In this document: positions 19,649-64,000 of the stretch, in pieces
Position numbering within the stretch: position 1 is the first letter of the stretch
Layout: every line of letters starts with the position of its first letter
Origin: an uncultured Poribacteria bacterium
GTDB lineage: Bacteria > Poribacteria > WGA-4E > WGA-3G
Assembly (NCBI GenBank): GCA_951813545.1
Contig: OX638352.1
Coordinates: 4,867,966 to 4,931,965, forward strand
Length of the DNA: 64,000 nt
Direction of reading: 5' to 3'
The notes under the pieces: model-generated
The model's database searches: none
Seen by the model: the letters and a program-made list of their open reading frames with translations, nothing else
What the model was told of the DNA's origin: nothing
Position numbers and translations under genes: made by a program

Positions 19649-19714
19649 GCTTGGGTAGTTGACAGAAATAGGACTTACGCATCACCGATTTTTAGGGTAG
19701 GTGATTTCATCAGG

Positions 19715-20755: not shown

Positions 20756-20966
20756 TAGGAAGCCCTTATTTCAAAAATAGCTGCACGAAGAGTCAAGGTT
20801 AAGGTACACTGTTATACTTACAATTCATTATCGTGCTAACTGAAAAGCGTTTAGATTTATAGGACTTACGCAAGTTTCTGGTAAGCCTTTAGGTCCGCCC
20901 ACTGCTGGCGAGGTTTAAAACCTCGCCAGCAAAGCGGGCAGCGTAAGTTCAGACCAAATTTGGGTT

Positions 20967-32296: not shown

Positions 32297-32465
32297 ATAT
32301 AGGACTTACGCAGACAGGCGATAAATCACGTTACTACAAACAGACATACCTTGGAAGAACGTGTGTTTCTCAAAAGCAGTCCGGTTCGTAGTCGCGCAAT
32401 TCTGCGGCGTACTCGCCCAAATGCGATGTGAATTATTGTGCCTTGCGTAAGTCCTGCTATATATA
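32297..32465. mobile_element. MITE (~169 bp) with IS701-like TIRs
   Basis: atataggacttacgca (32297-32312) and tgcgtaagtcctgctatatat (32444-32465) are inverted copies of the TIR of the IS at 59994-61085. Confidence 0.5.
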
Positions 32466-35066: not shown

Positions 35067-38000
35067 GTTTCAATTCTCTACTGGTTCGATTAAAAACTAA
35101 ATAGTGGTCGGCTATCGGCAGTCGGCAAAGAAGTTTCTATTCCATACTGGTTCGATTAAAAGCAGATGCACTATGACTATTTGGAGAAGTATCGTAGTTT
35201 CTATTCTATACTGGTTCGATTAAAAGTGTAAAAACCACCTGCCGTAAGAACTGCCAATTCAACGTTTCTATTCCATACTGGTTCGATTAAAAGATCAGAA
35301 GTTAATTTCAACCAAGACGCACCGGGATAAGTTTCTATTCCATACTGGTTCGATTAAAAGGGTACCTCTTCCTTTTTGTTACTAGAGAAGATGTGGTTTC
35401 TATTCCATACTGGTTCGATTAAAAAGTCTTCATCACTCATGCCATCATAGAAATTTAATGTGCGTTTCTATTCCATACTGGTTCGATTAAAAGGTCGATC
35501 TTTTCTATGAACGACTGAATCTCCGAGCACGTTTCTATTCCATACTGGTTCGATTAAAAGGCGGTCCAAAATAATTTCCCCCACCTTACAACATTTAGAT
35601 GTTTCTATTCCATACTGGTTCGATTAAAAGTCAACCCATGCCCGATCGTATCCGTCTTGCCTCATGTTTCTATTCCATACTGGTTCGATTAAAAGAGCAA
35701 CAGACTTAACACGTCCACCGTGCATCTCGAGACCGTTTCTATTCCATACTGGTTCGATTAAAAGCTACAGGCAGTTAAGGACATGGCGGACGTAGCACGT
35801 TTCTATTCCATACTGGTTCGATTAAAAGGCGGATGTAGCCCTCTGGTGATTGCCACACACAGGAGTGTTTCTATTCCATACTGGTTCGATTAAAAGGACG
35901 TGGGAAATGTGATAAGCCTCTAAGCAAGAAGCCGGTTTCTATTCCATACTGGTTCGATTAAAAGTTCGGTTGGGAGGAGTTTATGAAAGAGAGGAAAAGA
36001 GAAGTTTCTATTCCATACTGGTTCGATTAAAAGAGAGGCACTCAAAGCGAATCCGCCTACGGAAGTCCAGTTTCTATTCCATACTGGTTCGATTAAAAGC
36101 GAAAACAAAATGGGGGCAGCTTTTATTTAATAGTTTCTATTCCATACTGGTTCGATTAAAAGTGTTCATGAACAAATGAACGTCTCTGTCTATGAACGTT
36201 TCTATTCCATACTGGTTCGATTAAAAGTGATCTTCACTGGCAGAACGGAGGTGAAAAATGACAACCTTGTTTCTATTCCATACTGGTTCGATTAAAAGAC
36301 TCGTTCCGTTTCGGTATGGCACAACGAAATTCTGGTTTCTATTCCATACTGGTTCGATTAAAAGCGCTGAGTTCAGGGTTAGGGAGGCTTTGTTTCACGT
36401 TTCTATTCCATACTGGTTCGATTAAAAGTAGAATCCAACTCCGCTTTCCAGTATCTCATCAATAATGTTTCTATTCCATACTGGTTCGATTAAAAGTATC
36501 GCTTTTGCGATCGTCTCGGAAACGGCAAAGGCAAGTTTCTATTCCATACTGGTTCGATTAAAAGGAAAACCTGCCTTTAGCGAAAGGAGTTGATGAAGAT
36601 GAGTTTCTATTCCATACTGGTTCGATTAAAAGCAACTCACCTTGCTTATCTGCTCTATCGCTAAATATGTTTCTATTCCATACTGGTTCGATTAAAAGTT
36701 AATCCTGCATTTCCGTGCCGCTGGACTCTAAAAGTTTCTATTCCATACTGGTTCGATTAAAAGGGCGGTATCACACACAGACGGATCAGGGCGATATACG
36801 TTTCTATTCCATACTGGTTCGATTAAAAGGGTCATCAGTCTCTTATCAGCACTGCCCCATCGGATACGTTTCTATTCCATACTGGTTCGATTAAAAGGAC
36901 GTAGACCTGCGTATACTGCCGATCAAACCAGAAGTTTCTATTCCATACTGGTTCGATTAAAAGTTATGACTGGTACGTTAGGCCGACCGACGACGCAGCG
37001 TTTCTATTCCATACTGGTTCGATTAAAAGGCGTCGCCGCTTTCGGCTCTTTCGATACTTTCTGACAAATGTTTCTATTCCATACTGGTTCGATTAAAAGT
37101 CGCAGGCACGGCAACCGATCCGCAGATACGTTACATGTTTCTATTCCATACTGGTTCGATTAAAAGGGACGTGTTGCCTGCGTGGAACCCGGATGAGAAT
37201 GTTTCTATTCCATACTGGTTCGATTAAAAGATTAGTAACCGCTTTCGTGTATCCAACACGATAAAGTTTCTATTCCATACTGGTTCGATTAAAAGGCTTG
37301 CCAAAGTTCGTCACGCTCATGCTTGTCTTGAATGTTTCTATTCCATACTGGTTCGATTAAAAGCGGTGCGTACAGCTGAGCACCCGTCAATTCAAACTTT
37401 TGGTTTCTATTCCATACTGGTTCGATTAAAAGCTTCCTATTCCGCCGCAACCCTCCGGTAGTTTCCTATAAGTTTCTATTCCATACTGGTTCGATTAAAA
37501 GCACTCGCTATTTCAACGATTGAACCAACGCTTGACGCAGTTTCTATTCCATACTGGTTCGATTAAAAGCGTTCACAGCACGCCACACGTCCGCCAGTTG
37601 AAAGCAGTTTCTATTCCATACTGGTTCGATTAAAAGGATGCTAAGCGTGAGTGTTCTCCTCAGCAAGAGCGTGTTTCTATTCCATACTGGTTCGATTAAA
37701 AGGGTCCCCGATCGGGGAAATGATATTGACTTGATTTCGTTTCTATTCCATACTGGTTCGATTAAAAGTAAGCGATCTGAGTGTTATAATCATTTAACTG
37801 ACACGTTTCTATTCCATACTGGTTCGATTAAAAGACGATGATAAACTGCTTGATGCATGTTTGGCACTCAAGTTTCTATTCCATACTGGTTCGATTAAAA
37901 GTGCATATCGTGCAATTGACTTCTCCCACACCTAAGTTTCTATTCCATACTGGTTCGATTAAAAGTGTGATAGGTTCGTTCACAAATGCGTATTGCGGGT

Positions 38001-41000
38001 GTTTGTTTCTATTCCATACTGGTTCGATTAAAAGAATGGCGATCTGCGTTACAGGGCTTTTTTTGTCATTCCAGTTTCTATTCCATACTGGTTCGATTAA
38101 AAGTGTAGGGAGTAATCACGAGGTTTATTTTCTATCTAAGTTTCTATTCCATACTGGTTCGATTAAAAGTATTGCAAAGATGTTCCATTTGTGAACATCT
38201 ATATGAAGTTTCTATTCCATACTGGTTCGATTAAAAGCGACTCAGAAAACAGGGTCGTAGGAGCTGGGGGGCGTTTCTATTCCATACTGGTTCGATTAAA
38301 AGATCTCGTTTCGCAGGGCTATGACGAAGACACAATCAAGTTTCTATTCCATACTGGTTCGATTAAAAGGCACGTACTTAATGCGTCCTCTGAAGCCCTT
38401 GTACTTTTTGTTTCTATTCCATACTGGTTCGATTAAAAGTCGATGCTCGTCCAATTTTGAAGCTTACCATCTCCGCAGTGTTTCTATTCCATACTGGTTC
38501 GATTAAAAGACAACACTTACTTCCAGGATGAGGACTACTACATAACGTTTCTATTCCATACTGGTTCGATTAAAAGTCAGATTGGTTCCCCTGATCATAA
38601 TGCTTATACGACCTATCTTGTTTCTATTCCATACTGGTTCGATTAAAAGTCATCACCCACAAGTTCCATCGTCTGAATCAAAGGGGTTTCTATTCCATAC
38701 TGGTTCGATTAAAAGGCCGCTTGAATCGCTGCTAAACAAGTGCCAGGAGTGTTTCTATTCCATACTGGTTCGATTAAAAGGAGGCTGTACTGGGTGCATC
38801 GCTTCGCCCATTGATCCAAACGAGTTTCTATTCCATACTGGTTCGATTAAAAGACGCGTCGTCGACAGGCTTTACATACCAATCGTAGGTTTCTATTCCA
38901 TACTGGTTCGATTAAAAGGACTGAAAGCGTAACTCTCCGACCATATTCGTAGCAGGTTTCTATTCCATACTGGTTCGATTAAAAGCAGTTCGGCTGGGAG
39001 AAATTTATGGAAGGAGTCAAAAGGCAAGTTTCTATTCCATACTGGTTCGATTAAAAGCACCAACAGTCCCACCTTCAGTCCCCCAGAGAAAGTGTTTCTA
39101 TTCCATACTGGTTCGATTAAAAGATGCAGGAGAAGGAGACAGTAAGGGATCACGTGAAGGGTTTCTATTCCATACTGGTTCGATTAAAAGTTTGGGCAAA
39201 ACGTTCAAGCATAGCATCCAGAAAAACGTTTCTATTCCATACTGGTTCGATTAAAAGTGTACAGTCTCGGTAAGGCACGTATCACACTTCCTGCGTTTCT
39301 ATTCCATACTGGTTCGATTAAAAGAACATGCCCGTCCGCTGCAGGAAGATGGTACGGAAGTTTCTATTCCATACTGGTTCGATTAAAAGTATTATTGCTT
39401 GTGTCGGTGCGTCCGACTTTTCTGTGTTTCTATTCCATACTGGTTCGATTAAAAGTCGTAACAACGTGTAGTAACTTCTGCAAAATTGCGGTTTCTATTC
39501 CATACTGGTTCGATTAAAAGGCTATTGGAGTTGCTTATTATGAAACTTGAAAAAGAGTTTCTATTCCATACTGGTTCGATTAAAAGTTAGAAAACACAAT
39601 ATCATCCTCCTCCACCAGTATGTTTCTATTCCATACTGGTTCGATTAAAAGAAACGCTCTGTCCAGTAAGTCTTTATCCACGCCCACAAGTTTCTATTCC
39701 ATACTGGTTCGATTAAAAGTGGTGTTTCTACCCCCGCTATCAACCGCCTAACGAATGTTTCTATTCCATACTGGTTCGATTAAAAGAGAAACTGCTTCTG
39801 TAACCGCTTACTAATAATGATGCGTTTCTATTCCATACTGGTTCGATTAAAAGAGGAGATGCCCAATGTGCGTTGGTGGGAAAATATGTGTTTCTATTCC
39901 ATACTGGTTCGATTAAAAGGCAAGGTGCTTGGTGCTGGTGGTGCAGGGTAAGACTGTTTCTATTCCATACTGGTTCGATTAAAAGTTATCAAGTCGAAGA
40001 AGCAATCGCTTAAACCTAAGTTTCTATTCCATACTGGTTCGATTAAAAGTCTATGAAATGATCGTCGTCGCTCAACTCGTACCGTTGTTTCTATTCCATA
40101 CTGGTTCGATTAAAAGGCGCCTCTTGCAGTTGTTGGGCTGTATCCGAGAGTTGCGTTTCTATTCCATACTGGTTCGATTAAAAGTGAACCAAGCCGTACG
40201 AACGACACAGACATTTGAATGTTTCTATTCCATACTGGTTCGATTAAAAGTTTGCCGCGTGGCATTTTCTACACACTTCGCGAGAGTTTCTATTCCATAC
40301 TGGTTCGATTAAAAGGTCTTTGAGAAACGTCAACGCGTTAGCTATCTTTGGTTTCTATTCCATACTGGTTCGATTAAAAGTCCTGCATCGAAGATTCATC
40401 GAGCGCAAGTTCCATGTTTCTATTCCATACTGGTTCGATTAAAAGGCGAATAGAGATGTGGACTGTTCGGGATTCCTTAGTGTGTTTCTATTCCATACTG
40501 GTTCGATTAAAAGTTAAGGTTGAGGCAGGTGATGTTGATGTTCAGTCCTAGTTTCTATTCCATACTGGTTCGATTAAAAGTCAAGCACTCCATTCAAAAA
40601 AACCGGCTCCTACAACAAGCGTTTCTATTCCATACTGGTTCGATTAAAAGATCCACGCCCACAAAGGAGCATAGACAATTTCCTTTTTTCTATTCCATAC
40701 TGGTTCGATTAAAAGAATTGCCAAGAGAGTATCTCAGCACCTTCAATACGTAAGTTTCTATTCCATACTGGTTCGATTAAAAGTTCCATCTCTTCAAATG
40801 AATAACCTCCGTGGAAGTTTCTATTCCATACTGGTTCGATTAAAAGGCGCGTCCTTCACGGGCGCGTCAAATCCTGCAAGGTGCTGTTTCTATTCCATAC
40901 TGGTTCGATTAAAAGTTGCCAAACCAGACAATCAGCATGTACTGACCCAAGAATTGTTTCTATTCCATACTGGTTCGATTAAAAGTCCTGTTCCCGATCG

Positions 41001-44000
41001 TGGCAATGATATTGATCTGATCTGTTTCTATTCCATACTGGTTCGATTAAAAGTTGATAGTCATGGGTTACCTGTTGACGTTGCTAAGTTTCTATTCCAT
41101 ACTGGTTCGATTAAAAGGTACCCATTTTCCGTCTTACCGTTAGCAACGTCAACGTTTCTATTCCATACTGGTTCGATTAAAAGCGCACAACTGATGCAGT
41201 TCCGCCCCCCCCAGGAATGTTTCTATTCCATACTGGTTCGATTAAAAGAAAGATCTGAATTAAACTGCTATCTTCACATTCTGTCGTGTTTCTATTCCAT
41301 ACTGGTTCGATTAAAAGCATGTCAGGCGGTGCCATGATGCACATTAACTTCAAGATCAGGGTTTCTATTCCATACTGGTTCGATTAAAAGTCATCGAACC
41401 CATCCACGACATCGACGAACGCCGCGTTTCTATTCCATACTGGTTCGATTAAAAGGGGTATCGTCCGGCATAGCGCTCACAGGCGTAGAGGGTTTCTATT
41501 CCATACTGGTTCGATTAAAAGATCAATAAAATTTTCTTCAAAGGTGCTGTGCAGTGTTTCTATTCCATACTGGTTCGATTAAAAGTCCCTTCTATTAAGG
41601 TATCCACAAGTTCATTCTGGTTTCTATTCCATACTGGTTCGATTAAAAGCCTGACAGCCACAATTATCGCAGACGTTGACAGCGTGGTTTCTATTCCATA
41701 CTGGTTCGATTAAAAGCCGATGGCAAGGGAATAAACCCCCTTGCCACAACAAAGTTTCTATTCCATACTGGTTCGATTAAAAGTAACTTCGGATCGTCTT
41801 CATCATCAAAGTCTTGTTGAGTTTCTATTCCATACTGGTTCGATTAAAAGGCGAAACGAGATCAGCATACGCGTTCGACGCGCCCCAGTTTCTATTCCAT
41901 ACTGGTTCGATTAAAAGGAGGTTATCCAAAGTTACTACGACCGTAACGAAAAAGGTTTCTATTCCATACTGGTTCGATTAAAAGGCAGGCATCAAGCGAA
42001 ACTTACGGAGGTTATCACAGTTTCTATTCCATACTGGTTCGATTAAAAGTTATTCGGTGCGTCATAAAGCACGCGACCATTTGCAAGTTTCTATTCCATA
42101 CTGGTTCGATTAAAAGGTCTTACCAAACGGATGCCTCTGGGACAGATGAAGGTTTCTATTCCATACTGGTTCGATTAAAAGTTTATCGGGGGGAATTACC
42201 CAGAGGGCTATGGCGGCGTTTCTATTCCATACTGGTTCGATTAAAAGAACAGGGCGGAGTCCTCTTGGGGATTGTTGGTCACGTTTCTATTCCATACTGG
42301 TTCGATTAAAAGGCGGGAACATCAGAAACGGTATGAGGAAATCCGTATAGGTTTCTATTCCATACTGGTTCGATTAAAAGACGCGCCGAGAGAGACGCAC
42401 TGTACACACTTCGCAGTGGTTTCTATTCCATACTGGTTCGATTAAAAGATTAACACCTAAATCACTTTGAAACGTTTGACGTGGTTTCTATTCCATACTG
42501 GTTCGATTAAAAGGAGACATTCATACCGATGTCGATACCGATCTCTTGGGTTTCTATTCCATACTGGTTCGATTAAAAGCGGATACGGGCGGTGCTCTTA
42601 GAACTGTATATCTCGTGTTTCTATTCCATACTGGTTCGATTAAAAGGGGTTTCCTGACGCATAGTAATCCATTTTTTGATCTACGTTTCTATTCCATACT
42701 GGTTCGATTAAAAGAAAATTCAGAGTGTTACACCAAAGGGACACCTTTTCGAGTTTCTATTCCATACTGGTTCGATTAAAAGGTCAGGAAAGAAGATGAC
42801 GCAGGAGGGTTAAACGTTTCTATTCCATACTGGTTCGATTAAAAGTTCCCCGCACTGCCAAGATAAAGAAGAGCAATTTCATAGTTTCTATTCCATACTG
42901 GTTCGATTAAAAGCTGGTCAAAACTAGGCTCCCAACAACAACCAGTTAAGTTTCTATTCCATACTGGTTCGATTAAAAGTCACAAACTGAGCAGTGCCGA
43001 CAACCCACCTTGACATGTTTCTATTCCATACTGGTTCGATTAAAAGTCAAGGTCGTGGAAGGCAGGATAATCGTTTTCAAGATGTTTCTATTCCATACTG
43101 GTTCGATTAAAAGGGTACTTTCGAGAACCCTAATGCGACTTTTGATAGTCAAGTTTCTATTCCATACTGGTTCGATTAAAAGCGCACGCACGCCTGCAAC
43201 AGTCTCTCCGACTGTAATGTTTCTATTCCATACTGGTTCGATTAAAAGATAAACTTCTCCCAGCCAAACTGGGATGTCAACATACGATCATGTTTCTATT
43301 CCATACTGGTTCGATTAAAAGCTCCGCTTTCGGCCTTTGCGATAGCGTCTCCGAGATTGTTTCTATTCCATACTGGTTCGATTAAAAGATATGCTCCTCG
43401 CACGGTTCAGGCTGGGTGGCTTAGGTTTCTATTCCATACTGGTTCGATTAAAAGGACATAGCTACAAATATAGGAGGTATCAGCAGTGGGTGTTTCTATT
43501 CCATACTGGTTCGATTAAAAGTGAAATGATACAGGCATGGGCTTCTGGAGAGATGACAAGTTTCTATTCCATACTGGTTCGATTAAAAGACGTTTAGACG
43601 ACCGTTTACGATGATGCTTGCGAACGTTTCTATTCCATACTGGTTCGATTAAAAGTCCAGATATGGCAGTTGACACCGAGATTCACAGAATTGTTTCTAT
43701 TCCATACTGGTTCGATTAAAAGGTATGAGGAAATCCGTATAGCGGAAGCGACGTTGGAAGGTTTCTATTCCATACTGGTTCGATTAAAAGTATACAGCCA
43801 GCGGTACGGTAGAAGTTCAATATAGTGTTTCTATTCCATACTGGTTCGATTAAAAGCTTACACGTATCGACCGGCAGTGATACTCGATCTGATGTTTCTA
43901 TTCCATACTGGTTCGATTAAAAGAATATCTATGTCCTGCTCACTGACAGAAACATCCTGGTTTCTATTCCATACTGGTTCGATTAAAAGCCAAGAAATTA

Positions 44001-44322
44001 TACCAGCCACCCGTATCGGTCCAAGTTTCTATTCCATACTGGTTCGATTAAAAGCGAACTCAACTTACCGACAGCCGAATCGACATCATCAAGTTTCTAT
44101 TCCATACTGGTTCGATTAAAAGAGCGCACTTGGCGCGATGTGGTATCCCGATACATAAGAGTTTCTATTCCATACTGGTTCGATTAAAAGCACTCGAATC
44201 AATGCCCAAGCATCGCTTGATTTGACGTTTCTATTCCATACTGGTTCGATTAAAAGGTAAGTTGTAACAGCCTTGTTAGAACGTTTCGGAATGTTTCTAT
44301 TCCATACTGGTTCGATTAAAAG
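35067..44322 (-). CRISPR. CRISPR array with 139 copies of a 30-bp repeat (GTTTCTATTCCATACTGGTTCGATTAAAAG on the plus strand) and 138 spacers of about 34-42 nt
   Basis: Repeat starts were counted manually. The terminal repeat at 35067-35096 is degenerate (gtttcaattctctactggttcgattaaaaa). The leader-proximal perfect repeat at 44293-44322 abuts the cas2-side leader. Transcription is inferred on the minus strand, where the repeat reads CTTTTAATCGAACCAGTATGGAATAGAAAC and ends in GAAAC. Confidence 0.95.
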
Positions 44323-53590: not shown

Positions 53591-53674
53591 AAATTGGTTC
53601 GATTAAAGATAAACAAAAAAGCGCGTTAGTATCACATAACAAAACAAGTTTCTATTCCATACTGGTTCGATTAG
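53591..53674 (-). CRISPR. Orphan mini-array: one truncated and one near-complete copy of the CRISPR repeat with a 39-nt spacer
   Basis: aaattggttcgattaaag (53591-53608) and gtttctattccatactggttcgattag (53648-53674) match the array repeat. They lie in AT-rich, leader-like sequence downstream of cas6. Confidence 0.6.
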
Positions 53675-53787
53675 ATTATTGATTTCACGTTATATTAGAC
53701 GTTTCACATTTAAAATGGTTTACAGAAACTTTTAAAATATGTGTGTGTGGTCCTCAGCCATACATAAACCCACCCTCATAGTAGGTC

Positions 53788-54540
53788 TTAGACTTCTGCC
53801 ATCCCGAAACCGGCACTGTTTTTGTCGCCGAAACCACACTCGTAGCCGGTTTGGATTAATGCGGGACTTCCAGAGACACGGAATGGACACATCATTCCCT
53901 TTATCTTGATTCCTTTGTAGTCCACCAGACGAGTGACGCGTCCCTGTCGTCTGTCAATGTAGTCTTTATCAAAGGCGAAGGTCAGGGTATCGTCGTGGGG
54001 GACGCGAGCGTGGATTGCTTCGTGTTTGCGGATTAGGTTTTGGCGGATGAGTTCGGAGAGTACTGGATCGTCGGGTAGGCAGTAGTGCATTGCTTGCTTG
54101 CCGTCTCGCTCGCGCTTAGTGGACATTACAATCGGGGAGAGACATCGGAAATGCATTTCTGATTGGAAACGGGGGATACGCGGTATTGTGACATCCGTAA
54201 TTGGCAACCGACGCTGCCCAATGGATAACCGTCCCTCGGTTAAGAGTGTATTGGCGAAATGGGAGAGAAAGCGTTCTACTGGCGAGGAGACGTACCATGT
54301 TAAAGTTGAACGGAAATGGATTTTGTCACCGGTGATGCGTCTGCGTTCTGCCATTAATTGGGAGAAGGTGAAGAGTTTGAAACGTTTCTCGGCAGCGCGG
54401 TAGCCTTCCTCATGTAGAAAAGAGGCATACTCAGGGTCGGATTCGGCGAGGAAACGATAGATGACACCGGCGAGCAGGTGGTTGTAGTTAATGGGTAGGG
54501 TGAGTCCGTTCCCGACATCGGCAACGATTTTGATGCGCAT
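53788..54540 (-). CDS. cas6: Cas6 endoribonuclease
   Basis: 250 aa with a C-terminal glycine-rich loop GFGDKNSAGFGMAEV typical of Cas6. Confidence 0.75.
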   Translation of the reverse strand: MRIKIVADVGNGLTLPINYNHLLAGVIYRFLAESDPEYASFLHEEGYRAAEKRFKLFTFSQLMAERRRITGDKIHFRSTLTWYVSSPVERFLSHFANTLLTEGRLSIGQRRLPITDVTIPRIPRFQSEMHFRCLSPIVMSTKRERDGKQAMHYCLPDDPVLSELIRQNLIRKHEAIHARVPHDDTLTFAFDKDYIDRRQGRVTRLVDYKGIKIKGMMCPFRVSGSPALIQTGYECGFGDKNSAGFGMAEV

Positions 54541-54587
54541 TGGGTTATCTCCGTCAAGGCTATTATTATTGAGACGCTGAGGGATCG

Positions 54588-54715
54588 GGCGAGGTTAGAA
54601 ACCTCGCCAGCAGGGCGGTGGATGTATCCTCTCATTTTTCAGGCGAGCTTTGGGTTTCACTACGTTCAACCCAACCTACGATGCCATCCGATGCGGTTGG
54701 GAAACCGCACCTACC
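54588..54715. repeat. BIME-like cluster of three different REP-family hairpins upstream of cas6
   Basis: Family 1 ggcgaggttagaaacctcgcc (54588-54608); family 5 ttgggtttcactacgttcaacccaacctacgatgcc (about 54643-54680); family 2 gatgcggttgggaaaccgcacctacc (about 54683-54710). Confidence 0.6.
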
Positions 54716-54736
54716 GTGATTGTAAGGATGAAAAAT

Positions 54737-55243
54737 TTATATCCCCATGCGGAGGGCAACGGCGGCGAGTAGGATCAGTAGTGAAACAACACCCATCAGA
54801 CTGGACACTATTGACATCTGGGAACGGAGTGGTTTCACCTCCGGCGGAAGTTCTTCAAGTGTGGGATCTAAAGTCTCAATTGCTGCTGCCAATCGCGGTG
54901 CGAAAAGCATACTGTGCAATGCCGTGAGGATAACCAGCAGAAAGAAAAGTCCGATTTTGATTATGAATGTTCGCATAAACGCATTGGGAATTGGGGCGAG
55001 AGAGGTGAGATCCAAGGCATAGAAAATATTGCCGATACCCGTGAAGAACAGCACACCGATACAGCCCCACACAACAGGTTCAAACCGTTTCCCTATCTGC
55101 ATCAAGAGTTGGATGCGTTGGACAGGCGGTAGGTTCTGTCTGAAATAAGGAACAATCACCATCGCCAAAATGAGGTTACCACCGACCCATACAACAGCGG
55201 CAATAACGTGTAGCCAAAGAACTAAGAGCCAGAATATTTCCAT
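54737..55243 (-). CDS. Polytopic membrane protein (CopD/DUF-like)
   Basis: 168 aa with four or five TM helices and a motif WLHVIAAVVWVGGN. Confidence 0.4.
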   Translation of the reverse strand: MEIFWLLVLWLHVIAAVVWVGGNLILAMVIVPYFRQNLPPVQRIQLLMQIGKRFEPVVWGCIGVLFFTGIGNIFYALDLTSLAPIPNAFMRTFIIKIGLFFLLVILTALHSMLFAPRLAAAIETLDPTLEELPPEVKPLRSQMSIVSSLMGVVSLLILLAAVALRMGI

Positions 55244-55432
55244 TTTTATTATTCCTTTTAATAGTTGTCAGTTAAAGAGGGGTTTGACCTAATCAGAGAC
55301 CTCAATCATTCGTTTGCACAGCCTAACAGGCTATGCTACAGTTCCTTTTAAAGTTGTCAGTTGTCAGTTATCAGTTGTCAGTTAAAGAGGGGTTTGATCT
55401 AATCAGAGATCTCAATCATTCAGGAGGACAAT

Positions 55433-57193
55433 CTACGTGGCGTGAGCGTCTTGGTGGTTTTCAATATCGTTGATAACACCGTCCACGCGGGTGATTAGAT
55501 TATTCCGTTCGTCTGAACTGAGTGGTACAGGTGCGAAACGGTGGTAATCACACTTCGTGAGGAGATCGACAAGTTCCTCAATAATAGGTTCGGAGACCTG
55601 TGCGTGAGTACACATTTCGCGTGCCGTGTCAATATTGCGTTCTGAGAGTGCGAAAGTATCTTCAAGGTACTGGTAAAGCGTTTGCGCGAGTGCATTGGCG
55701 AAGGTCGTTCCGGTGTCTGTCGTGTCGCTACGTGCGAGTGCCGCGAGGGCATCGTGCGCCTGTGAAACCGGTGTTACCTGCTCTCCTTCGGCAGGCTGCG
55801 TTTTTTGGTTTCTTGGTCCACTACTGTCAGGCGCGCGTGTTCCCGCGGAGTTGTTTATCCGTGCCTTTGTAGGCATCACAAATCCGGTGCGATACCAGAG
55901 ATACCCACCGACCGCCAATATAACGAGTAGAACTGCGAATAGGATTAACCAGCGAATCCATGGTGAACCGTCCGTATCGTCAAGAGTATCGTTCGGGTTC
56001 GGACGCACGGAGATCGGGATAGGGGTTGTCTCCGTCGTCGCATATACCGCACGGCTTGGATCGAAGTAGCCATACTTAATCGCTGGGATCCGCAAGGCAC
56101 CTGTTCGAGCAGGGGTCAGGACGTACGCGTAACCCCGATTTGTTAACGTAGAATCTGCCACGAGATTGGGTCCGCTCACCATGACCCCGGCGATTGTTGG
56201 CAGTTTGGGTGGTGTGACCGTCTGGATGTTGCCGTGTCCAGAGATACGGACAGTGAACGTTAGCGGGTGTCCAACTTCAATCCAACCACGCTCAATTTCA
56301 GCAGAAATTTGATATTCACCGATAGCACCGTTGAAGTGAGGAGGTCTGCCTGTTTCGGGAATCGGTTGCACCGTCAGTGTCAAAGGTTTGGTTTTTAAGG
56401 TTTTGCGTCCTTGCGGGAGTGGTAGTAGAAGTTCAGCAGGTGCGAGAACGATCTGTCCGGCTTTCTTCGGATATAACTTATGTGTGTATTCCTCGACCCA
56501 AAATGTTCGCCCACGAATTTGCTGTGTGTATGTCGGCACCTTTTGAAGTGTCTCAACGAAGAAATCACGGAATGTCGGGAGGCGCGGAGTTGGGGATTCA
56601 CGAGTTGGAAGAACTGTGGTGTAGAGGTGTCGGAAGGTATACGTAAAGGGTGCATTCAGGTAGGGCTGTGACGTGTTGACCTCTGCTTCAACTTGGTGGA
56701 TAGCGTTGGTTGAAACATCTATGTATGTGTCAGCACCGCTCACCCGGATCGAACCCGGATTTGCAAAATAGGCGTTACCTTGGTAGGCAAAACGGATGTC
56801 GGACAGGGCAAAATCCCCCACTGCTTGCGGAATCAATTCATAAACCCATGCCATGGAAACAGCAATCTTGTCTGATTCCAATCGCGGTGTAGTTTCTGAA
56901 TGCAGTGGCACTGCGAGGAACGCAGGTAGGAAGTTGAACTGCGGTGCCTCAATATGTTTGATGAAGGTTTTTCCCGAAATCGTGAGGTCCAACCTTGCCT
57001 TCTCCCCGAATTGGATGTGGCGAGGACTTATGATGGCAGCGACATTAATCTCTTGGCTTTGTGCCTGTGTTGTAAGAAGGATGAAAACGATGCCGACGAA
57101 AAAGATTGGAAGACTCTTGGTTGGAAGAGTGGAAGAGTGGAAGAGTGGGTACCCATCCTTCCATCCCCTTCTTCCCTTCTTCCATCCTTCCAT
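55433..57193 (-). CDS. batD: BatD-like protein (aerotolerance operon family)
   Basis: A signal/TM N-terminus, a large extracytoplasmic domain, a C-terminal TM (WIRWLILFAVLLVILAVGGYLWY) and a cytoplasmic tail, as in BatD. Start placed at M47 of the ORF. Confidence 0.5.
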   Translation of the reverse strand: MEGWKKGRRGWKDGYPLFHSSTLPTKSLPIFFVGIVFILLTTQAQSQEINVAAIISPRHIQFGEKARLDLTISGKTFIKHIEAPQFNFLPAFLAVPLHSETTPRLESDKIAVSMAWVYELIPQAVGDFALSDIRFAYQGNAYFANPGSIRVSGADTYIDVSTNAIHQVEAEVNTSQPYLNAPFTYTFRHLYTTVLPTRESPTPRLPTFRDFFVETLQKVPTYTQQIRGRTFWVEEYTHKLYPKKAGQIVLAPAELLLPLPQGRKTLKTKPLTLTVQPIPETGRPPHFNGAIGEYQISAEIERGWIEVGHPLTFTVRISGHGNIQTVTPPKLPTIAGVMVSGPNLVADSTLTNRGYAYVLTPARTGALRIPAIKYGYFDPSRAVYATTETTPIPISVRPNPNDTLDDTDGSPWIRWLILFAVLLVILAVGGYLWYRTGFVMPTKARINNSAGTRAPDSSGPRNQKTQPAEGEQVTPVSQAHDALAALARSDTTDTGTTFANALAQTLYQYLEDTFALSERNIDTAREMCTHAQVSEPIIEELVDLLTKCDYHRFAPVPLSSDERNNLITRVDGVINDIENHQDAHAT

Positions 57194-57212
57194 CTTTCCA
57201 TCCTTCTGAAGT

Positions 57213-57845
57213 TTACCAATCCCTTGCCCGTCGATATCCACTTTTTCGCTGTTCCTGTAGTAATTTTTGCCGTAACCTATTTTCATTCTCACTAAAACGT
57301 TCCAAGAGTTGAAGTGCTTCGGCTTTGCCAATGTCGTTGGGTTCTGTTTTCGGTGGAGCGTCCTTGTTCGCCTGCTGTTGCTGTGCGAGATCTTGCTGCT
57401 GTTTCATCAGTTGAAGTGCTAATGCGAGGTTGTGTTGGGCATCGACATCTTGAGGGTCTAAGCGGAGTGCGTGTTTGTAAGACTCAATTGCACCGGCAAG
57501 ATCGCCTGCTTTAAATTGGGCGTTTCCCAAGTTGTAATAGATATAAGCCTGATGTGGAACGTTCTTGGTTTGCCCGGTGTGCTTTAGCAGCGACACCTGA
57601 AATGCTCGCGCAGCCTCTCTAAATTTCCCCTGTCTGTATAGGACAGTGCCGAAGTTATAGTGTGCGGTCGGACTTTCAGGTTTGTCAAGCGTTGCTTGTT
57701 GAAAGGCAACCCGTGCTTCGTCATAGTTCTGACGTGCGTACGCCTCGTTCCCAGCTTTCATAGTCCGCGTCCAACCCCCCACCCATCCGACGAGCACAAA
57801 GACGAAAATAGGTATGAATGAGCAACGGAGTATTCTGTTCCACAT
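57213..57845 (-). CDS. TPR-repeat protein (BatC/BatE-like)
   Basis: An N-terminal TM followed by TPR repeats (AHYNFGTVLYRQGKFREAARAF, IYYNLGNAQFKAGDLAGAIESYKHALRLDP). Confidence 0.6.
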   Translation of the reverse strand: MWNRILRCSFIPIFVFVLVGWVGGWTRTMKAGNEAYARQNYDEARVAFQQATLDKPESPTAHYNFGTVLYRQGKFREAARAFQVSLLKHTGQTKNVPHQAYIYYNLGNAQFKAGDLAGAIESYKHALRLDPQDVDAQHNLALALQLMKQQQDLAQQQQANKDAPPKTEPNDIGKAEALQLLERFSENENRLRQKLLQEQRKSGYRRARDW

Positions 57846-58046
57846 ATCTTTATTATATCAGATGCTTTTGTGGTTTGCAAACAATTATGGCAGGCGATTT
57901 ATGTGGAAGGGCGAGGATACAATCCTCGCCAGCGAAAACGGAAGGGTGATGCAAAAAGTATGGCGAATTGCTGTACACGGTGGTACGACAATTCGCCATG
58001 GCGAGGTGTCCTTAGAACAAACGCCTATAAAAATAATAAAGTGTTA

Positions 58047-58877
58047 TTATTTCTGTTTAAGGTCCGCCCAAGTTGTTGCCAATTTTCCAGTGGGTTCAAC
58101 AGCAGTCAGGGGCAGAATTTCATCGAAGAAACTGTCCTTATCAGTTGCGGCATCTGGATAGATTGTAACAGCGTCGTTCGTTGCATCGTCAAAGTGAAGG
58201 TTGAAATATGCGGAACCGCCGGATTCACCACACCGGTAAAGAAGGACGTTCGCGCCTTTTTGTAAATCGACTTCGACGTTGTGAAGAATCGTTCGTGCGG
58301 CACCTGTCCACCTTGTATTGTTATACCATTTTTCGCCATTAAGCCAAATTTGGGCGTGATCGTCGTGTGCGGGCGACATTACAGCTTTCATATCACTCGG
58401 CGAATCGATAACGATAATAGCATAGGTATCAAGATTATCAACGGGTCCGCCTCTGTTCATATTATCTCCATCAGCAGGATCAATTTCAAAGACTGTCCAT
58501 GCACGAGTGCCGCCGTGGTCATCGCCCCATTCCATATCAATGTCCTGTGTCATAAGCAAACCTTCCATCGTTGAAAGTGAGGACTGCGTCAGTTTACCGC
58601 CGCTCCCTTCGTCAATGAAGTCCATCGGACCGGAAACTTGGAAGGTTCCATTGTTTTCGTAGTTGCCGTCGGGTCCGTACCACTTCGTAATCCACGTTTC
58701 TACGTCACTGTGATCTTCTCTGAGGCTGTCATCGTTGGGGTCTGGATCTTCTAAGAGTTGGTCTTCAGCCAAGGGACCCCCTTGGATTAGGTCAGCCGCA
58801 AACACATGGTGTGAGCCACTGATAACGAGCGTGAACATAATCCCAATTGCGAGTGCTAACGTATAAAATCTTTTCAT
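58047..58877 (-). CDS. Secreted hypothetical protein, paralog 1
   Basis: Signal peptide MKRFYTLALAIGIMFTLVISGSHHVFA. About 70% identical to the 59170..59992 gene. Confidence 0.5.
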   Translation of the reverse strand: MKRFYTLALAIGIMFTLVISGSHHVFAADLIQGGPLAEDQLLEDPDPNDDSLREDHSDVETWITKWYGPDGNYENNGTFQVSGPMDFIDEGSGGKLTQSSLSTMEGLLMTQDIDMEWGDDHGGTRAWTVFEIDPADGDNMNRGGPVDNLDTYAIIVIDSPSDMKAVMSPAHDDHAQIWLNGEKWYNNTRWTGAARTILHNVEVDLQKGANVLLYRCGESGGSAYFNLHFDDATNDAVTIYPDAATDKDSFFDEILPLTAVEPTGKLATTWADLKQK

Positions 58878-59169
58878 TTTATATCCAATATCCTTTTTTA
58901 GAGATTAAAAACTAAAGTCATCAGGACGCGTTATAGGCGACCTAATTTTCTTTATCAACAGATTATATAACGTTGAAACAGCGTTCAACATTACAAATTA
59001 TTATAACATCTTAACAGAAGTTTGTCAAGGGACTATTAGTTACATATTTGCAAACTGGACGGGAGTTGGGTTTCTCTGCGTTCAACCCAACCTACAATTC
59101 CGTTCGGTCCCCCTCCCAACATCAGAAAAAGCCCCTGTCTGAAAAGGCTGGACAAGGGCTTTCGTTTAA

Positions 59170-59992
59170 CTAACGGTTCCGTTTAATATCTGCCCAGAGC
59201 GTTGTCAATTTTCCAGTCGGATCAACGGATAAAACCCCAGCAACTTCACTGAAGAAGCTTTTCTGGTCTTTCGACTTGTCTGGATAAATTTTGCAGGCTT
59301 TGTGGGTGGCATCATCAAAGTGGAGGTTTATATACGCGGAACCGCCGGATTCACCAACTCGGTAGAGGACAACATTGGCACCTTTTTGTAAATCGACTTC
59401 GACGTTGTGAAGAATCGTTCGTGCGGCACCCGTCCACCTGGAGTTGTTGTACCATTTTTCGCCGTTAATCCAAATTTGGGCGTGGTCATCATGTGCTGGA
59501 GACATGATGGCTTTCCTCGCTGCGGGTGCATTAATAACGATAATACCGTAGGTATCAATGTTATCCACGGGTCCGCCTCGGTTCATATTGTCTCCGTCTG
59601 CCGGATCAAGCTCAAAGACTGTCCACTCTCGTGTACCGCCGTTAGCCTTCTTCCATTCCATATCAACGGTTTGTGTCAGCTGCAAACCGGCGACTGTTGA
59701 GAGCTTGGTTTCCGTGAGTTTACTACTTGTGCCCTCATCAATAAGGTCTCTCCGAGAAGAAACCTGAAAGCTGCCGTTGTTTTCGTAGTTGCCATCGGGC
59801 CCATACCACTTGGTAATCCAAGTGTCAACATCACTGTGATCTTCTCTAAGGTTGTCCCCGTTGGGGTTTGGATCCTTTAGGAGATCACCTTCCGCCAAAG
59901 GTCCATCATCGATATCGTTTGCCTGCGCGAATGCGAGGTGCGAGATGCTTACAACGAGTGCGAAAATAATCGCTGTCGCAAGCGTAAATTGA
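59170..59992 (-). pseudogene. Secreted hypothetical protein, paralog 2, split after codon 6 by an IS701-like insertion
   Basis: The body reads ...FTLATAIIFALVVSISHLAFAQA... without an in-frame ATG. The missing 5' end, ATGAAAAGATTTTATCAA (MKRFYQ), lies on the far side of the IS at 61086-61103 (minus strand). A 5-bp direct repeat TTGAT flanks the IS. Confidence 0.6.
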
Positions 59993-59993
59993 T

Positions 59994-61085
59994 TAGGACT
60001 TACGCATCATTGATTTTTATCATAGGAGATTTGAGTTGTTGACAGAGATATTCAGAAAGCCATCCGTGTTTGACTTGATAAAGTGTTTTACCTGTTTGAT
60101 AAGCGTTGCGCATTAGGTGAACCCAAACCAGAAAAGCAGCGGCAATGTGATTCCGAACGATACGCGCCAGACGACATTGGCAATTCTCCAAACCTGTCAA
60201 CTGTTTGGCTTCGCGGTGAAGTTGTTCAATCTTCCAGCGCACGTCGCACACCTGTCGCACGACGGACACATCGGATTGACTCAAGTCATTGGTTATGACA
60301 GAATCCGTGCGTTGAGAAGACGCCACCCGGAAAACTTTCACCTTATGATCTCTGGGAAACCTATGAAGTTTTACGCGTTTGCCTGATTTTTCTTCTGCCT
60401 CTGTCCAGTGTAAAGAATCAATGCGTTGATAGGGTTTCTTAGCATCAGAATCATCAACAAGACGATTACATTTCAACGGGACATAATACGTCTTATCAAG
60501 ATTTTCAATGTAAAGGAGCAGAGATTTACTCGCATACCAAGCATCCATCAGCACCGTTGAAAAAGCGAGGTCGCGCGAGTATACACAGACCGAAAGCATA
60601 TCTCGGACATGATCCAACTTCGATTTACCATCGCCTGCTTTATCGTAGATACGGTAATCAATCAACCAATACCGGTCTAACTTCGGATTCACATAGACGC
60701 ACGTAACAATAGCAATACCGTTGATGATACCGCCAGCATTGCCGGAATAGTGTCTCCGGGCGAGGGCGATCTTCTTCGCATAGCGTTTATCAATGACGGT
60801 ATCATCAAAGATAAGGTAGCCATCGGGAGCCAACACCACGTCATTTTTGACGTGTTCCCAAAGCAGACGCGGGGTCAGACGGTCCCCTGCGAGATAACGG
60901 TTGATCTGATCATGACTGAAACTTTCACAATGTTCTGCGAAATGCGTCAGCGTATAGTTGATTGGCGTGCTAAGTAGATATTGACAATAGTCAAGACGTG
61001 TTGGTCTAAGCATATTGAGATGCCTCCTCGTAGAGCATATTACCCCGTCTACGAGGTTATGTCAAACATTATTGCGTAAGTCCTA
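59994..61085 (-). mobile_element. IS701-like (IS4-superfamily) insertion sequence (~1.09 kb) with 13-bp TIRs TAGGACTTACGCA
   Basis: Left TIR taggacttacgca (59994-60006) and right TIR tgcgtaagtccta (61073-61085). The transposase stop codon lies inside the left TIR. Flanked by a 5-bp TSD ttgat. Confidence 0.65.
60000..61013 (-). CDS. DDE transposase (IS701/IS4-like)
   Basis: 337 aa with a C-terminal R-(3)-E-(6)-K motif (DVRWKIEQLHREAKQ). Confidence 0.65.
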   Translation of the reverse strand: MLRPTRLDYCQYLLSTPINYTLTHFAEHCESFSHDQINRYLAGDRLTPRLLWEHVKNDVVLAPDGYLIFDDTVIDKRYAKKIALARRHYSGNAGGIINGIAIVTCVYVNPKLDRYWLIDYRIYDKAGDGKSKLDHVRDMLSVCVYSRDLAFSTVLMDAWYASKSLLLYIENLDKTYYVPLKCNRLVDDSDAKKPYQRIDSLHWTEAEEKSGKRVKLHRFPRDHKVKVFRVASSQRTDSVITNDLSQSDVSVVRQVCDVRWKIEQLHREAKQLTGLENCQCRLARIVRNHIAAAFLVWVHLMRNAYQTGKTLYQVKHGWLSEYLCQQLKSPMIKINDA

Positions 61086-61254
61086 TTGATAAAATCTTTT
61101 CATTTTCTTTCCTTCTTTACAGATAAATAGTTAAGATCACTGGGTTAAATTACAACATAACCCAGATTCTTTTACAGGGTATGCAACGTTGAAACATTCC
61201 AACGTTACGATTAATCACCATAACATTTATACCAAAATTTTTCAAGAAAAAAAG

Positions 61255-63084
61255 TCAGGACAAGGAGGATGACGGATATGCATCTAAAGCGGTTTGCCAT
61301 TTGGTCAGTTGTGCGACGCGTTGTGCTGCATCTGTGGGGATTTCAAGTGGTCTACCACGAGTATCAATAACCAATCCAACGACACCCCCCATCGCCTCTG
61401 CTTCAACCATGTTTCCGGTCCCTGCACCGACATCAAATCGTCGTGAGGGTTGGAGTTTCACGGAGGCTTTTTCACCCAATGGAAGCGGATACAGCCGGAG
61501 TTCACCGTAACGGACATCTTCCCCAATGGGTGGCTTGCCATCAGTGCTAATTTCAACGGAGAGGCACGCCTCACCCGCCTTTCCAATGCCAACCGGTGCA
61601 ATAGCAGTCCCTAAATGGATGAGACAATCCCGTTCAAAGACCTGCGTCGCGGCTTCAGGGTTCACCTGCGCAAGCACACCGAGTTGTGGCATCATAAAGA
61701 TGCTATCAACAGCCAGATGGGTTATACCTTCGGGCTGAAAAGCGTCCATCATCATGAGCATCGCTTGCTGACGGCGGGGTGCGTGCGACAACACACCACC
61801 ACTTCCGACGAGCATATCTAAGGAGAGCATATTAACGAGGGTTTGTCCGCTTTCCGACTGATCAAAGGCTTCAGAGATAGTCCGTTGCTGCTGGACACCC
61901 CGTAATTCAACGGCGAGTTGTTTGTGCTGCTCAAAAGCGAGTCGGAGTGCCTCACGCGCGATTGCCTGCTCAAGTATCAACTCTTGTAGAGTCTGTGGAA
62001 TTGTCGTTGGACGAATCATCTTGTTTTTGATTCGATTGCGGAGATCACCCTCTTCAATGTCAAACGGTACCCAACGGAGAACGTTTTCTAAGCCTGTCTC
62101 AGCGAGGACATTAGAGACGCTATAACTCATGCCGAGGTTCGCACTGACAGTGCGGTTGAAGATCGGTTCCGCCTCCCGGTTTTTAAAAACGGAGAACACA
62201 TCGGTCGTCGCACCCCCGATGTCAACCCCGACGACCTCAATATCCTGCTGCTCAGAGACGGTCTGAATGATTTCGCCGACTGCACCCGGGGTTGGCATAA
62301 TAGGCGCATCTGTCCAGTCAATGAGTTTTTTGTAGCCGGGCGCGTGTGCCATCACGTGCTCAAGGAATTGTTCCTGAATCTTGTGGCGCGTTGGCATCAG
62401 ATTTTCACGCTCCAAAACGGGGCGGAGGTTGTCCACCATTTCCAGTGACATCACATCCTGCAAGCGTTCTTTGATCGATTCGCGTGCGTCTATGTTCCCG
62501 GCATAAATAAGCGGGAGTTCGTAAGCAATGCCCAACCGAGGCCTCGGACGTGCAGCGGCAATAATTTCAGCCAATTCAACGACGTGCGAGGTTGTGCCGC
62601 CATCAATACCACCGGAAAGGAGTAACATATCAGGACGGAGGTGTCGGATACGCTCGATTTTCTCGTGCGGGAGGCGTTTATCGTTAGATGCGATAACATC
62701 CATAACAATCGCCCCTGCCCCTAATGCTGCACGCTCCGCGCTTTCTCCTGTCAGATTGCGGACAACCCCCGCGACCATCATCTGGAGTCCACCGCCGGCA
62801 CTGCTGGTTGAGATATAGATGTCAACCCCTTCGTCTCCGCGCTGCGGCTTGAGGATAACACCCTCATCAAGGAGTTTGCGTCCAGCAAGTTCCTCAACTT
62901 CGGTGATAGCGTTGATAACACCCGCCGTTACGTCCTCAACGGGTGCTTCAACGGTAGTAGGTGCTTCGCCACGCACGATGAGTTGATATTCATCGCCGCG
63001 TTTTTCAATTAGGATTGCTTTCGTCGTTGTGCTGCCACAATCTGTAGCAAGAATCGAGCGGATGTCCCCCGCTGGTTTGTTCAT
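61255..63084 (-). CDS. GlmL/MutL-like (glutamate-mutase accessory family) ATPase-fold protein
   Basis: The N-terminus ILATDCGSTTTKAIL is an actin-like ATPase motif typical of GlmL-family proteins. A second DIGGATTDV motif lies mid-protein. Confidence 0.4.
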   Translation of the reverse strand: MNKPAGDIRSILATDCGSTTTKAILIEKRGDEYQLIVRGEAPTTVEAPVEDVTAGVINAITEVEELAGRKLLDEGVILKPQRGDEGVDIYISTSSAGGGLQMMVAGVVRNLTGESAERAALGAGAIVMDVIASNDKRLPHEKIERIRHLRPDMLLLSGGIDGGTTSHVVELAEIIAAARPRPRLGIAYELPLIYAGNIDARESIKERLQDVMSLEMVDNLRPVLERENLMPTRHKIQEQFLEHVMAHAPGYKKLIDWTDAPIMPTPGAVGEIIQTVSEQQDIEVVGVDIGGATTDVFSVFKNREAEPIFNRTVSANLGMSYSVSNVLAETGLENVLRWVPFDIEEGDLRNRIKNKMIRPTTIPQTLQELILEQAIAREALRLAFEQHKQLAVELRGVQQQRTISEAFDQSESGQTLVNMLSLDMLVGSGGVLSHAPRRQQAMLMMMDAFQPEGITHLAVDSIFMMPQLGVLAQVNPEAATQVFERDCLIHLGTAIAPVGIGKAGEACLSVEISTDGKPPIGEDVRYGELRLYPLPLGEKASVKLQPSRRFDVGAGTGNMVEAEAMGGVVGLVIDTRGRPLEIPTDAAQRVAQLTKWQTALDAYPSSSLS

Positions 63085-63167
63085 AAACTGCGTCTCCAGA
63101 TTTCAGATTTTACACGTATTAATCAGAGCATTTTGGTCTGTCGCGATTCGGAGATCGCTCCTACCAG

Positions 63168-63959
63168 TTAATAACCCAATTGCCGTAGATATTCTCGGTT
63201 TACTGACATACGTTCGAGATCCGAACGCGACTCGATCTGTCCGGGACACGCCGTAACCCACCGGTCATAATTGAGTTCTTCCAAAGTCGACATGATACCG
63301 GGGAAGTCCATGACAGTGCCAGCACCGACATCCACCCAATCCACGTCGTATGTACTATCATCTCCACCTGTGTATCCTGAATAATCCTGAAGGTGGACGT
63401 AGACGAGAACATCACTATAACGGCGAATTGATTCAATAGGATCATAGCCCCAGAGTGCGGAATGCGACACATCTATACACAATTTGCACTTACGGAGCAG
63501 ACTCATATATTTCGCCCAGTCATCAATGGAATCGACCGTCGTGTTCGTGTGAATATGGTAACAGACCTCCAAGCCGTACTGTGCGGCGTACTCTGCCCAC
63601 TCTTCGGACACGTCAGCGAGAGCAGCGAGGTCGGCGTTATTGACAGGACGATCCTGCGGTTTTCCCGCCCCCATGAACATGAAACAGTCGGCTTCAACTT
63701 CAGCGGCGAAGTCTATCCGACGTTTATTCAGTTCCATCTGCTCGGTGTTTTTGTCGATTGGCAGCCCGCGTGCTGTGACGGCAGCGACAGGCAGATCCGC
63801 ATTGTTGCACATCTGTCGGATGTGTTGTGGTGTGCCGACCCAATCCAAGGATTGACGCATCTCCCAGCCGTCCCATCCTGCGTCCTTCAATTGTGTCAAC
63901 AACTCCTCAAAATCAGGTGTCTGCCAACGTAAAGTACTATATCCAAATTTGAAACCCAT
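63168..63959 (-). CDS. Sugar phosphate isomerase/epimerase (xylose isomerase-like TIM barrel)
   Basis: 263 aa with a TIM-barrel pattern (GFKFGYSTLRW...GWDGWEM...HLQD). Confidence 0.65.
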   Translation of the reverse strand: MGFKFGYSTLRWQTPDFEELLTQLKDAGWDGWEMRQSLDWVGTPQHIRQMCNNADLPVAAVTARGLPIDKNTEQMELNKRRIDFAAEVEADCFMFMGAGKPQDRPVNNADLAALADVSEEWAEYAAQYGLEVCYHIHTNTTVDSIDDWAKYMSLLRKCKLCIDVSHSALWGYDPIESIRRYSDVLVYVHLQDYSGYTGGDDSTYDVDWVDVGAGTVMDFPGIMSTLEELNYDRWVTACPGQIESRSDLERMSVNREYLRQLGY

Positions 63960-64000
63960 GCTGTTTCCTCCTATTTTGGCTATTGGCTGTCGGCTGTCGG

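Follow-up and report, generated by a model that had tools for sequence, protein, structure and literature searches.

How has one of two neighbouring and similar secreted-protein genes come to lie in two pieces, its start stranded more than 1 kb away from the rest? The question is raised by a locus of an uncultured Poribacteria bacterium, contained in a 64,000-nt stretch of contig OX638352.1 (assembly GCA_951813545.1) that is here called the window and within which all positions are counted. The initial annotation had read the locus as an IS701-like insertion sequence (IS) lodged in codon 6 of the second of two tandem paralogs, hereafter paralog 2, paralog 1 being intact. The present analysis leads, with great confidence, to a recent insertion of an IS of the ISPlag1 group into the second of the two tandem genes, by ordinary transposon insertion.

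The element ends in perfect 13-bp inverted repeats (TAGGACTTACGCA), the likeness of the two ends ceasing past base 13, and is flanked by the 5-bp duplication TTGAT; for repeats and duplication alike, the coordinates and letters first proposed agree with those found here (Table 1). Inverted repeats, a target duplication and one gene for a DDE transposase make it a mobile element, as had been claimed, and the transposase stop codon does lie inside the terminal repeat. Allowing up to two mismatches, the terminal 13-mer occurs 11 times in the window versus 0.94 times expected.

The effect on the gene can be read by undoing the insertion. Removal of 59994-61090 in silico, a check proposed together with the initial annotation, regains an uninterrupted 278-aa open reading frame (ORF; MKRFYQFTLATAIIF..., MKRFYQFTLATAIIFALVVSISHLAFAQAND...) which is homologous to the 276-aa paralog 1, with 196 identical positions (71% identity). 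The displaced 5' end stands where it had been placed, its minus strand giving ATGAAAAGATTTTATCAA (MKRFYQ), and it is directly followed by a TAG made of the first three bases of the IS. As to the insertion point, its location at the 5' end of the gene holds, while codon 6 needs a small correction: the IS stands past codon 6 and ahead of codon 7, part of codon 5 and the whole of codon 6 being covered by the duplication. The predicted promoter and the leader now lie 1,097 bp farther from the gene body, in keeping with the 1.1 kb first estimated. The body itself (...NQFTLATAIIFALVVSISHLAFAQAND...) has indeed no ATG of its own, the first in-frame start of the open frame 59170-59993 being a TTG at 59898, past the signal peptide. 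Judged by inspection, both proteins begin with a typical Sec signal peptide (MKRFYTLALAIGIMFTLVISGSHHVFA in paralog 1, MKRFYQFTLATAIIFALVVSISHLAFA/QA in restored paralog 2); as, moreover, excision restores the gene and related contigs carry an unbroken copy, its description as an interrupted secreted-protein gene is borne out.

Independent of any reconstruction, the same site is found unoccupied in other genomes. In L083-L088, six metagenome contigs of diverse sample origin and 92-97% identity to the window, there is a single ATCAA, the junction reading ATGAAAAGATTTTATCAA/TTTACGCTTGCG, in the wider context ...GAAAGAAAATGAAAAGATTTTATCAA/TTTACGCTTGCGACAGCG..., and their upstream 188 bp are 97-99% identical to the window. 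The closest strain is represented by metagenome scaffold L001 (99.5% identity overall), which is 99.4% identical to window positions 53783-59993 and 99.7% to 61274-64000, encodes an identical paralog 1 protein, and has an intact 278-aa gene where the window carries the IS.

The following course of events would account for the locus. On the general mechanism of DDE enzymes, the transposase would bind the 13-bp ends and join them to staggered cuts made 5 bp apart in the target ATCAA, gap repair then yielding the TTGAT/TTGAT duplication. The promoter, the 5' untranslated region (UTR) and the first six codons would thus be cut off from the remaining 272 codons, and translation from the native start would end after six codons at the IS-borne TAG. 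Since the 3' remainder lacks any start codon in front of the signal peptide, and a consensus promoter scan detected no outward promoter at the IS end, paralog 2 would be knocked out and its expression lost. Paralog 1 should be unaffected, polarity being unlikely, because it has a consensus promoter of its own and a terminator-like hairpin stands between the genes. The insertion is recent, for the gene is otherwise undamaged and near-identical strains do not have the IS.

Some observations weigh against so plain an account. A blastn and tblastn search of the 64-kb window found no other full copy of the IS; no second identical copy of the transposase is known, so that any activity of the window copy would be putative; and L001 differs from the window directly upstream of the insertion point, where an unrelated 343 bp stand in place of 188 bp. 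This last mismatch, which takes the place of window 61086-61273 and breaks off a few bases at most from where the IS ends, would suit recombination between two IS copies or an IS-adjacent rearrangement, by which the 18-nt displaced start and its promoter would have come from another paralog; it would also suit such an origin that the displaced start ATGAAAAGATTTTAT equals the first 15 nt of paralog 1. It is nevertheless very improbable, as the 5-bp duplication is identical on both flanks, in six independent contigs the very same flanks meet at one ATCAA, the upstream 188 bp being 97-99% identical to the window, and the L001 segment matches a second promoter type present in L089 and L090, which makes L001 the variant. 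Hardly more credible is a repeated element misplaced in the assembly. The source is an uncultured Poribacteria genome, IS copies are frequent points of collapse or misjoining in metagenome-assembled genomes, and related assemblies have no IS at the site; a misjoin, however, would not yield a precise 5-bp duplication at a site with a known unoccupied form, nor would it keep the gene halves in the right order and orientation. There is likewise only a very slim chance that the IS acts as a reversible on/off switch by precise excision via the 5-bp repeats. Such a switch would be in line with a gene that is otherwise intact, with occupied and empty alleles coexisting among near-identical strains, and with the two or three tandem paralogs found at the locus in different genomes, yet the empty alleles are fully accounted for by strains never hit by the IS, and DDE insertion sequences seldom excise precisely; no excision footprints came to light either, though no search was aimed at them.

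The preferred reading, a simple insertion, leaves the peculiarity of L001 to be described in its own right. In this scaffold, positions 3542-3884, compared with window 61086-61273, bring another promoter, another leader and other first seven codons of paralog 2 (MRKFYQ...). The border of the replacement lies within a few bases of the position of the window IS, and L089 and L090 carry this type of promoter segment at the gene as well. Since L083-L088 have the window-type upstream segment and L089 and L090 the L001 type, the window represents the common arrangement plus the IS, and the replacement has taken place on L001's side. From the sequences, the segment looks like an allelic cassette exchange, its cause being unexplained. 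An IS-mediated rearrangement, which the mismatch next to the IS had led one to suspect, was rejected in view of the exact empty sites in L083-L088 and of the L001 segment being a natural promoter type.

What kind of IS is it? The transposase scores 378.7 bits (cutoff 250; residues 6-330 of 337) against the NCBIfam model NF049921, transpos_IS701_2, "IS701 family transposase", and 87.3 bits, under the cutoff of 150, against the older model of the family, NF033540; in Pfam, it matches DDE_5 and DDE_Tnp_1. Aligned with one another, 32 relatives show no variation at positions that include D70/D71-T72, D157-x-W159-Y160, R259, E263 and K270, which corresponds to a DDE triad with R-x3-E-x6-K, and the window protein has C256 at the tyrosine position, in ...VCDVRWKIEQLHREAK... 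An absent tyrosine, that is an incomplete YREK motif, is the trait separating IS701 from IS4 (PMC2266710). The canonical IS701 family is further defined by a 4-bp duplication and a length of 1,400-1,550 bp (De Palmenaer et al. 2008, PMC2266710). The window element shares with it the DDE triad, the cysteine in the tyrosine's place and the remaining R, E and K. It departs from it in its duplication, which is 5 bp here, in more than 20 related copies and by empty-site comparison, and in its length of 1,092 bp, the element and its relatives measuring approximately 1,090-1,250 bp. Its ends fit in part, TAGGACTTACGCA agreeing with five of the seven specified positions of the published terminal consensus ---YACT-Y--YR, which by its own source does not represent the whole IS701 family (PMC2266710). 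Because the group departs from the 2008 definition in duplication length and size, the accurate label is IS701-like, ISPlag1 group. The initial name thus holds in a broad sense only, with the NF049921 match and a nearest named relative annotated as IS701-like ISPlag1 in its favour. The element is unnamed, for the nearest transposase in a collection of 5.8 billion proteins is only 92% identical; no record elsewhere has the exact transposase sequence, and a sequence search of the PDB with it gave no match.

The nearest named relative by annotation carries the NCBI product name 'IS701-like element ISPlag1 family transposase'. ISPlag1 of Planktothrix agardhii CYA126/8 has a 337-aa ORF, was assigned to the IS701 group and has repeats starting CAGGACTTACGCA (Christiansen et al. 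2008, PMC2464740). Both elements have a single 337-aa DDE transposase with R-x3-E-x6-K, and the proteins are 54.4% identical over residues 5-334 (98% of the length; Planktothrix plasmid copies). The repeats begin (C/T)AGGACTTACGCA in the window element, in its relatives, in the Planktothrix plasmid copy and in published ISPlag1; both elements inactivate genes by inserting. ISPlag1 differs in being 1,306 bp long (Planktothrix plasmid), with 29-bp repeats and a stop codon approximately 118 bp inside the right end, whereas the window element has 1,092 bp, 13-bp repeats and a stop within the repeat; the host phyla differ as well. One ISPlag1 copy (L123) has non-matching flanks, TCTTC and TCTAA. 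A more distant cousin, with approximately 28% protein identity to the window transposase, is ISAba11 of Acinetobacter baumannii, which is 1,101 bp long (PMC7760358), is placed in an emerging family related to IS701, with a 6-bp duplication in one case (PMC7519801), and knocks out genes by insertion (PMC9771954). It is like the window element in its compact size and 13-bp inverted repeats.

A scan for relatives, with one genome per species, returned 165 related copies. At least 10 of them reside in one Candidatus Poribacteria chromosome (OZ220722.1, 88% identical), and further ones in Nostoc, Calothrix, Verrucomicrobia, Chloroflexi and others, with lengths of 1,089-1,100 bp in Poribacteria and others and approximately 1,250 bp in cyanobacteria; many Poribacteria genomes contain relatives of 1,090-1,100 bp whose ends agree with those of the window element. 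Nearly all of their ends (more than 60 related elements, several phyla) carry (T/C)AGGACTTACGCA on both sides, and clean 5-bp duplications flank more than 20 copies, e.g. TACCG, ATATG, AAGGA, TAATT and CCTTT, with no obvious target consensus. Within the window, the family has left other traces (Table 1). Two miniature elements share the ends of the IS (TAGGACTTACGCA ... TGCGTAAGTCC), their interiors being unrelated to it; they are probably derivatives that cannot move by themselves and depend on transposases of this family. Between a TnpB-like gene (18386-19648; OrfB_IS605 and Cas12f1-like TNB domains) and a beta-propeller gene, 39 bp of the stop-codon end survive as a relic.

The IS has the orientation of the interrupted gene, and since both point the same way, the host promoter transcribes into the transposase gene. 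A 9-bp inverted repeat straddles the -10 box of the predicted transposase promoter inside the IS and reaches with its 3' arm into the ribosome-binding site GAGGAGG (61023-61029). Both arms are contained only in transcripts begun upstream of the IS promoter, and the hairpin is seen in the centroid fold of the read-through transcript. IS10 and IS50 are known for a fold-back protection of transposase translation. Like theirs, the hairpin has its 5' arm upstream of the element's own start and overlaps the ribosome-binding site; unlike theirs, its pairing register varies among relatives, with no consensus structure. The relative L003 has the doubly changed pair CCTCATAGA / TCTATGAGG, and in other relatives a different upstream arm (CUUCC or CUCC) pairs with the ribosome-binding site. 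Speaking against such a role, RNAalifold on the transposase leaders of 10 relatives gave no pairs and no common structure, and the read-through fold is not unusually stable (z = -0.93). By analogy, the hairpin may limit activation of the transposase from outside.

A distinct matter is the palindrome that precedes both paralogs and that the initial annotation had taken for a shared operator. Its positions (61185-61206 and 58969-58992) hold; the second copy is not a perfect DNA palindrome (AACGTTGAA / TTCAACATT, 8 of 9 positions). Lengthened by two bases at either side and read on the gene strand, each copy forms an inverted repeat with an 11-bp stem that begins 6-9 nt past the predicted -10 box, the start of transcription being predicted from -10 boxes only. 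The exact pattern occurs once in the window versus 0.01 times expected, and nowhere else in the window beyond the paralog promoters. Across nine distinct Poribacteria alleles, 97% of cells or positions are paired, with a loop of 4-6 nt; among the covarying pairs, C-G, U-G and U-A all occur at one, A-U, G-U and G-C at another. Wherever the DNA symmetry fails, the sense strand has a G-U pair. Against shuffled controls, the predicted 5' UTRs are much more stably folded (z = -3.98 and -3.44), and the hairpin sits at the very 5' end; stem-loops at the 5' end of an mRNA are known to stabilise transcripts. An Rfam scan of 57900-61400, with E up to 1, gave no match. An alternative promoter type of the gene (L001, L089, L090) has no inverted repeat.

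Is the repeat then an operator, at which a dimeric regulator would bind the DNA and control the two paralogs jointly? A dyad symmetry 6-9 nt past the -10 box of both promoters is a common place for repressor binding, the pattern is within the window specific to the two paralog promoters, and the repeat is conserved in both paralog lineages and in several genomes. On the other hand, every break in the symmetry can still be bridged by G-U pairing on the sense strand, the C-G/U-G/U-A series included, with 97% of cells pairing as RNA; a loop varying between 4 and 6 nt alters the spacing of half-sites; the folds of the 5' UTRs place a stable hairpin at the very 5' end; and no regulator has been identified, while the alternative promoters of the gene (type B) do without the repeat. 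An operator is thus possible, if rather doubtful. Of the initial claim, what stands is a conserved repeat just past the -10 box of both promoters; the operator role is not established, and G-U-compatible variants suit an mRNA stem-loop at least equally. On balance, the variants and folds favour a 5'-terminal mRNA stem-loop as fitting at least as well as an operator. Since the covariation is modest, its score being reached by 43 of 500 shuffles, neither of the two is proven.

The protein family hit by the IS has approximately 545 homologs; among the 120 matches listed, all visible names are 'hypothetical protein' and Candidatus Poribacteria. Searches of the two paralogs against Pfam and NCBIfam gave no match. 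An AlphaFold model of the disrupted protein (P0001; pLDDT 74.9, pTM 0.78), compared with the PDB by Foldseek, yields weak matches to carbohydrate-binding beta-sandwiches of CBM35 and PA14 type (E approximately 1e-3, TM 0.2-0.45). On this model, the target genes would encode secreted beta-sandwich proteins, their function staying tentative because the Foldseek matches are weak. Three otherwise different secreted proteins of the window (58047-58877, 59170-59993 and 19715-20755, minus strand) have a common C-terminal motif, ...V(E/D)P..K(L/M)..TW(A/G)x(I/L)K followed by 2-4 residues, which may be a lineage-specific sorting or anchoring signal.

The order of the locus is conserved: a MutL-family (PF13941) gene, two or three tandem paralogs, a TPR gene and BatD. 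The paralog 2 promoter site reads TTGACA-17-TATGGT in L083 and L091. In another Poribacteria genome (L119:559-1914), the next gene upstream of the interrupted gene's ortholog is a larger and different DDE_5 transposase gene (451 aa), which stands in the usual place of the MutL-family gene. IS elements may come and go at this locus with some ease. A more far-reaching proposal would join two ideas, namely that the 11-bp repeat is an undescribed cis-regulatory element, be it 5' mRNA stem-loop or operator, of a family of secreted beta-sandwich proteins that appears confined to Poribacteria, and that the locus serves as a variable site of the surface or secretome, remodelled through IS insertion, exchange of promoter cassettes (as in L001) and shifts in the number of paralogs; taken as a whole, I consider it unlikely.

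Table 1. Positions of the IS, of the genes and signals around it, and of related traces in the 64,000-nt window
Feature	Positions	Strand	Remarks
Complete insertion sequence, IS701-like (ISPlag1 group)	59994-61085	minus	1,092 bp; both ends bounded by repeats and duplication; site without the IS in L001 and L083-L088
Left terminal inverted repeat, transposase-proximal	61073-61085	minus	TAGGACTTACGCA read on the minus strand
Right terminal inverted repeat	59994-60006	minus	holds transposase stop TAA at 60000-60002
Target-site duplication, copy 1	59989-59993	unstranded	TTGAT (gene strand ATCAA); single ATCAA in empty sites
Target-site duplication, copy 2	61086-61090	unstranded	TTGAT
Transposase gene, DDE type	60000-61013	minus	337 aa; sole long ORF of the element
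Predicted transposase promoter inside the IS	61037-61065	minus	TTGACA-17-TAATAT; 10/12 in consensus scan
9-bp inverted repeat	61026-61056	minus	CCTCGTAGA (61056-61048) / TCTACGAGG (61034-61026); straddles the transposase -10 box
Displaced first six codons of interrupted gene	61086-61103	minus	ATGAAAAGATTTTATCAA (MKRFYQ); contiguous with the remaining gene in L083-L088
Interrupted gene (paralog 2), 3' remainder	59170-59993	minus	codon 5/6 to stop; 99.4% identity with L001, which has the gene unbroken
Predicted native paralog 2 promoter	61217-61245	minus	TTGAAA-17-TATGGT with upstream TG; reads into the transposase gene
Inverted repeat, paralog 2	61183-61208	minus	sense GTAACGTTGGA-ATGT-TTCAACGTTGC; 11-bp stem
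Terminator-like hairpin with T-run	59130-59149	minus	after paralog 2, between paralog 2 and paralog 1
Predicted paralog 1 promoter	59000-59028	minus	TTGACA-17-TATAAT with TG; 12/12 consensus matches
Inverted repeat, paralog 1	58967-58994	minus	sense GTAATGTTGAA-CGCTGT-TTCAACGTTAT; 11-bp stem with G-U pairs
Intact paralog 1	58047-58877	minus	276 aa with signal peptide; starts MKRFYTLALAIGIMFTLVISGSHHVFA; identical protein encoded on other contigs
Miniature element, 157 bp	32300-32456		same ends as the IS; 5-bp duplication CTATA
Miniature element, 135 bp	17743-17877		same ends as the IS; duplication ambiguous
Solo terminal 13-mers	10998-11010 and 20860-20872		
39-bp relic of stop-codon end	19669-19707		85% identical to 59994-60032

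Other repetitive features of the window touch the locus less closely. A very large array of clustered regularly interspaced short palindromic repeats (CRISPR) extends over 35133-44322, with 135 exact copies of a 30-nt repeat (GTTTCTATTCCATACTGGTTCGATTAAAAG), 139 at up to three mismatches, and spacers of approximately 34-40 nt; an isolated repeat lies some 9 kb off, at 53648-53677, and on contig L001, which is syntenic, a Cas6 gene (PF01881) stands at the equivalent place. A dispersed intergenic palindromic repeat, GGCGAGG(N8)CCTCGCCAGC, is found at 9072-9230, 12703, 20907, 23611-23653, 27782, 44866, 54588 and 57910-57940; one copy is just downstream of paralog 1, and three stand in tandem with 64-bp spacing at 9072-9230. 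Three paralogous genes of approximately 3.1 kb (41-3171, 3373-6496 and 14100-17185; 65-85% nucleotide identity) encode 1,025-aa proteins in which an ECF sigma factor is fused to beta-propeller repeats of BNR / Sortilin type, and conserved boxes upstream of them (...AAAAGGTTGCATTATTT) amount to seven repeats.

To sum up, 59170-59993 plus 61086-61103 should be annotated as one IS-disrupted gene and not as a truncated ORF. Beyond annotation, the weight of the finding is limited: it adds an unnamed, compact ISPlag1 / IS701-like IS in Candidatus Poribacteria, with its ends and its 5-bp duplication defined, and a natural presence/absence polymorphism of that IS among near-identical strains. The conserved, predicted stem-loop at the start of the paralog leaders is a small lead for gene regulation in Poribacteria. 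Taken with the end relics and the miniature derivatives, the polymorphism indicates past activity of this element family in these uncultured bacteria.

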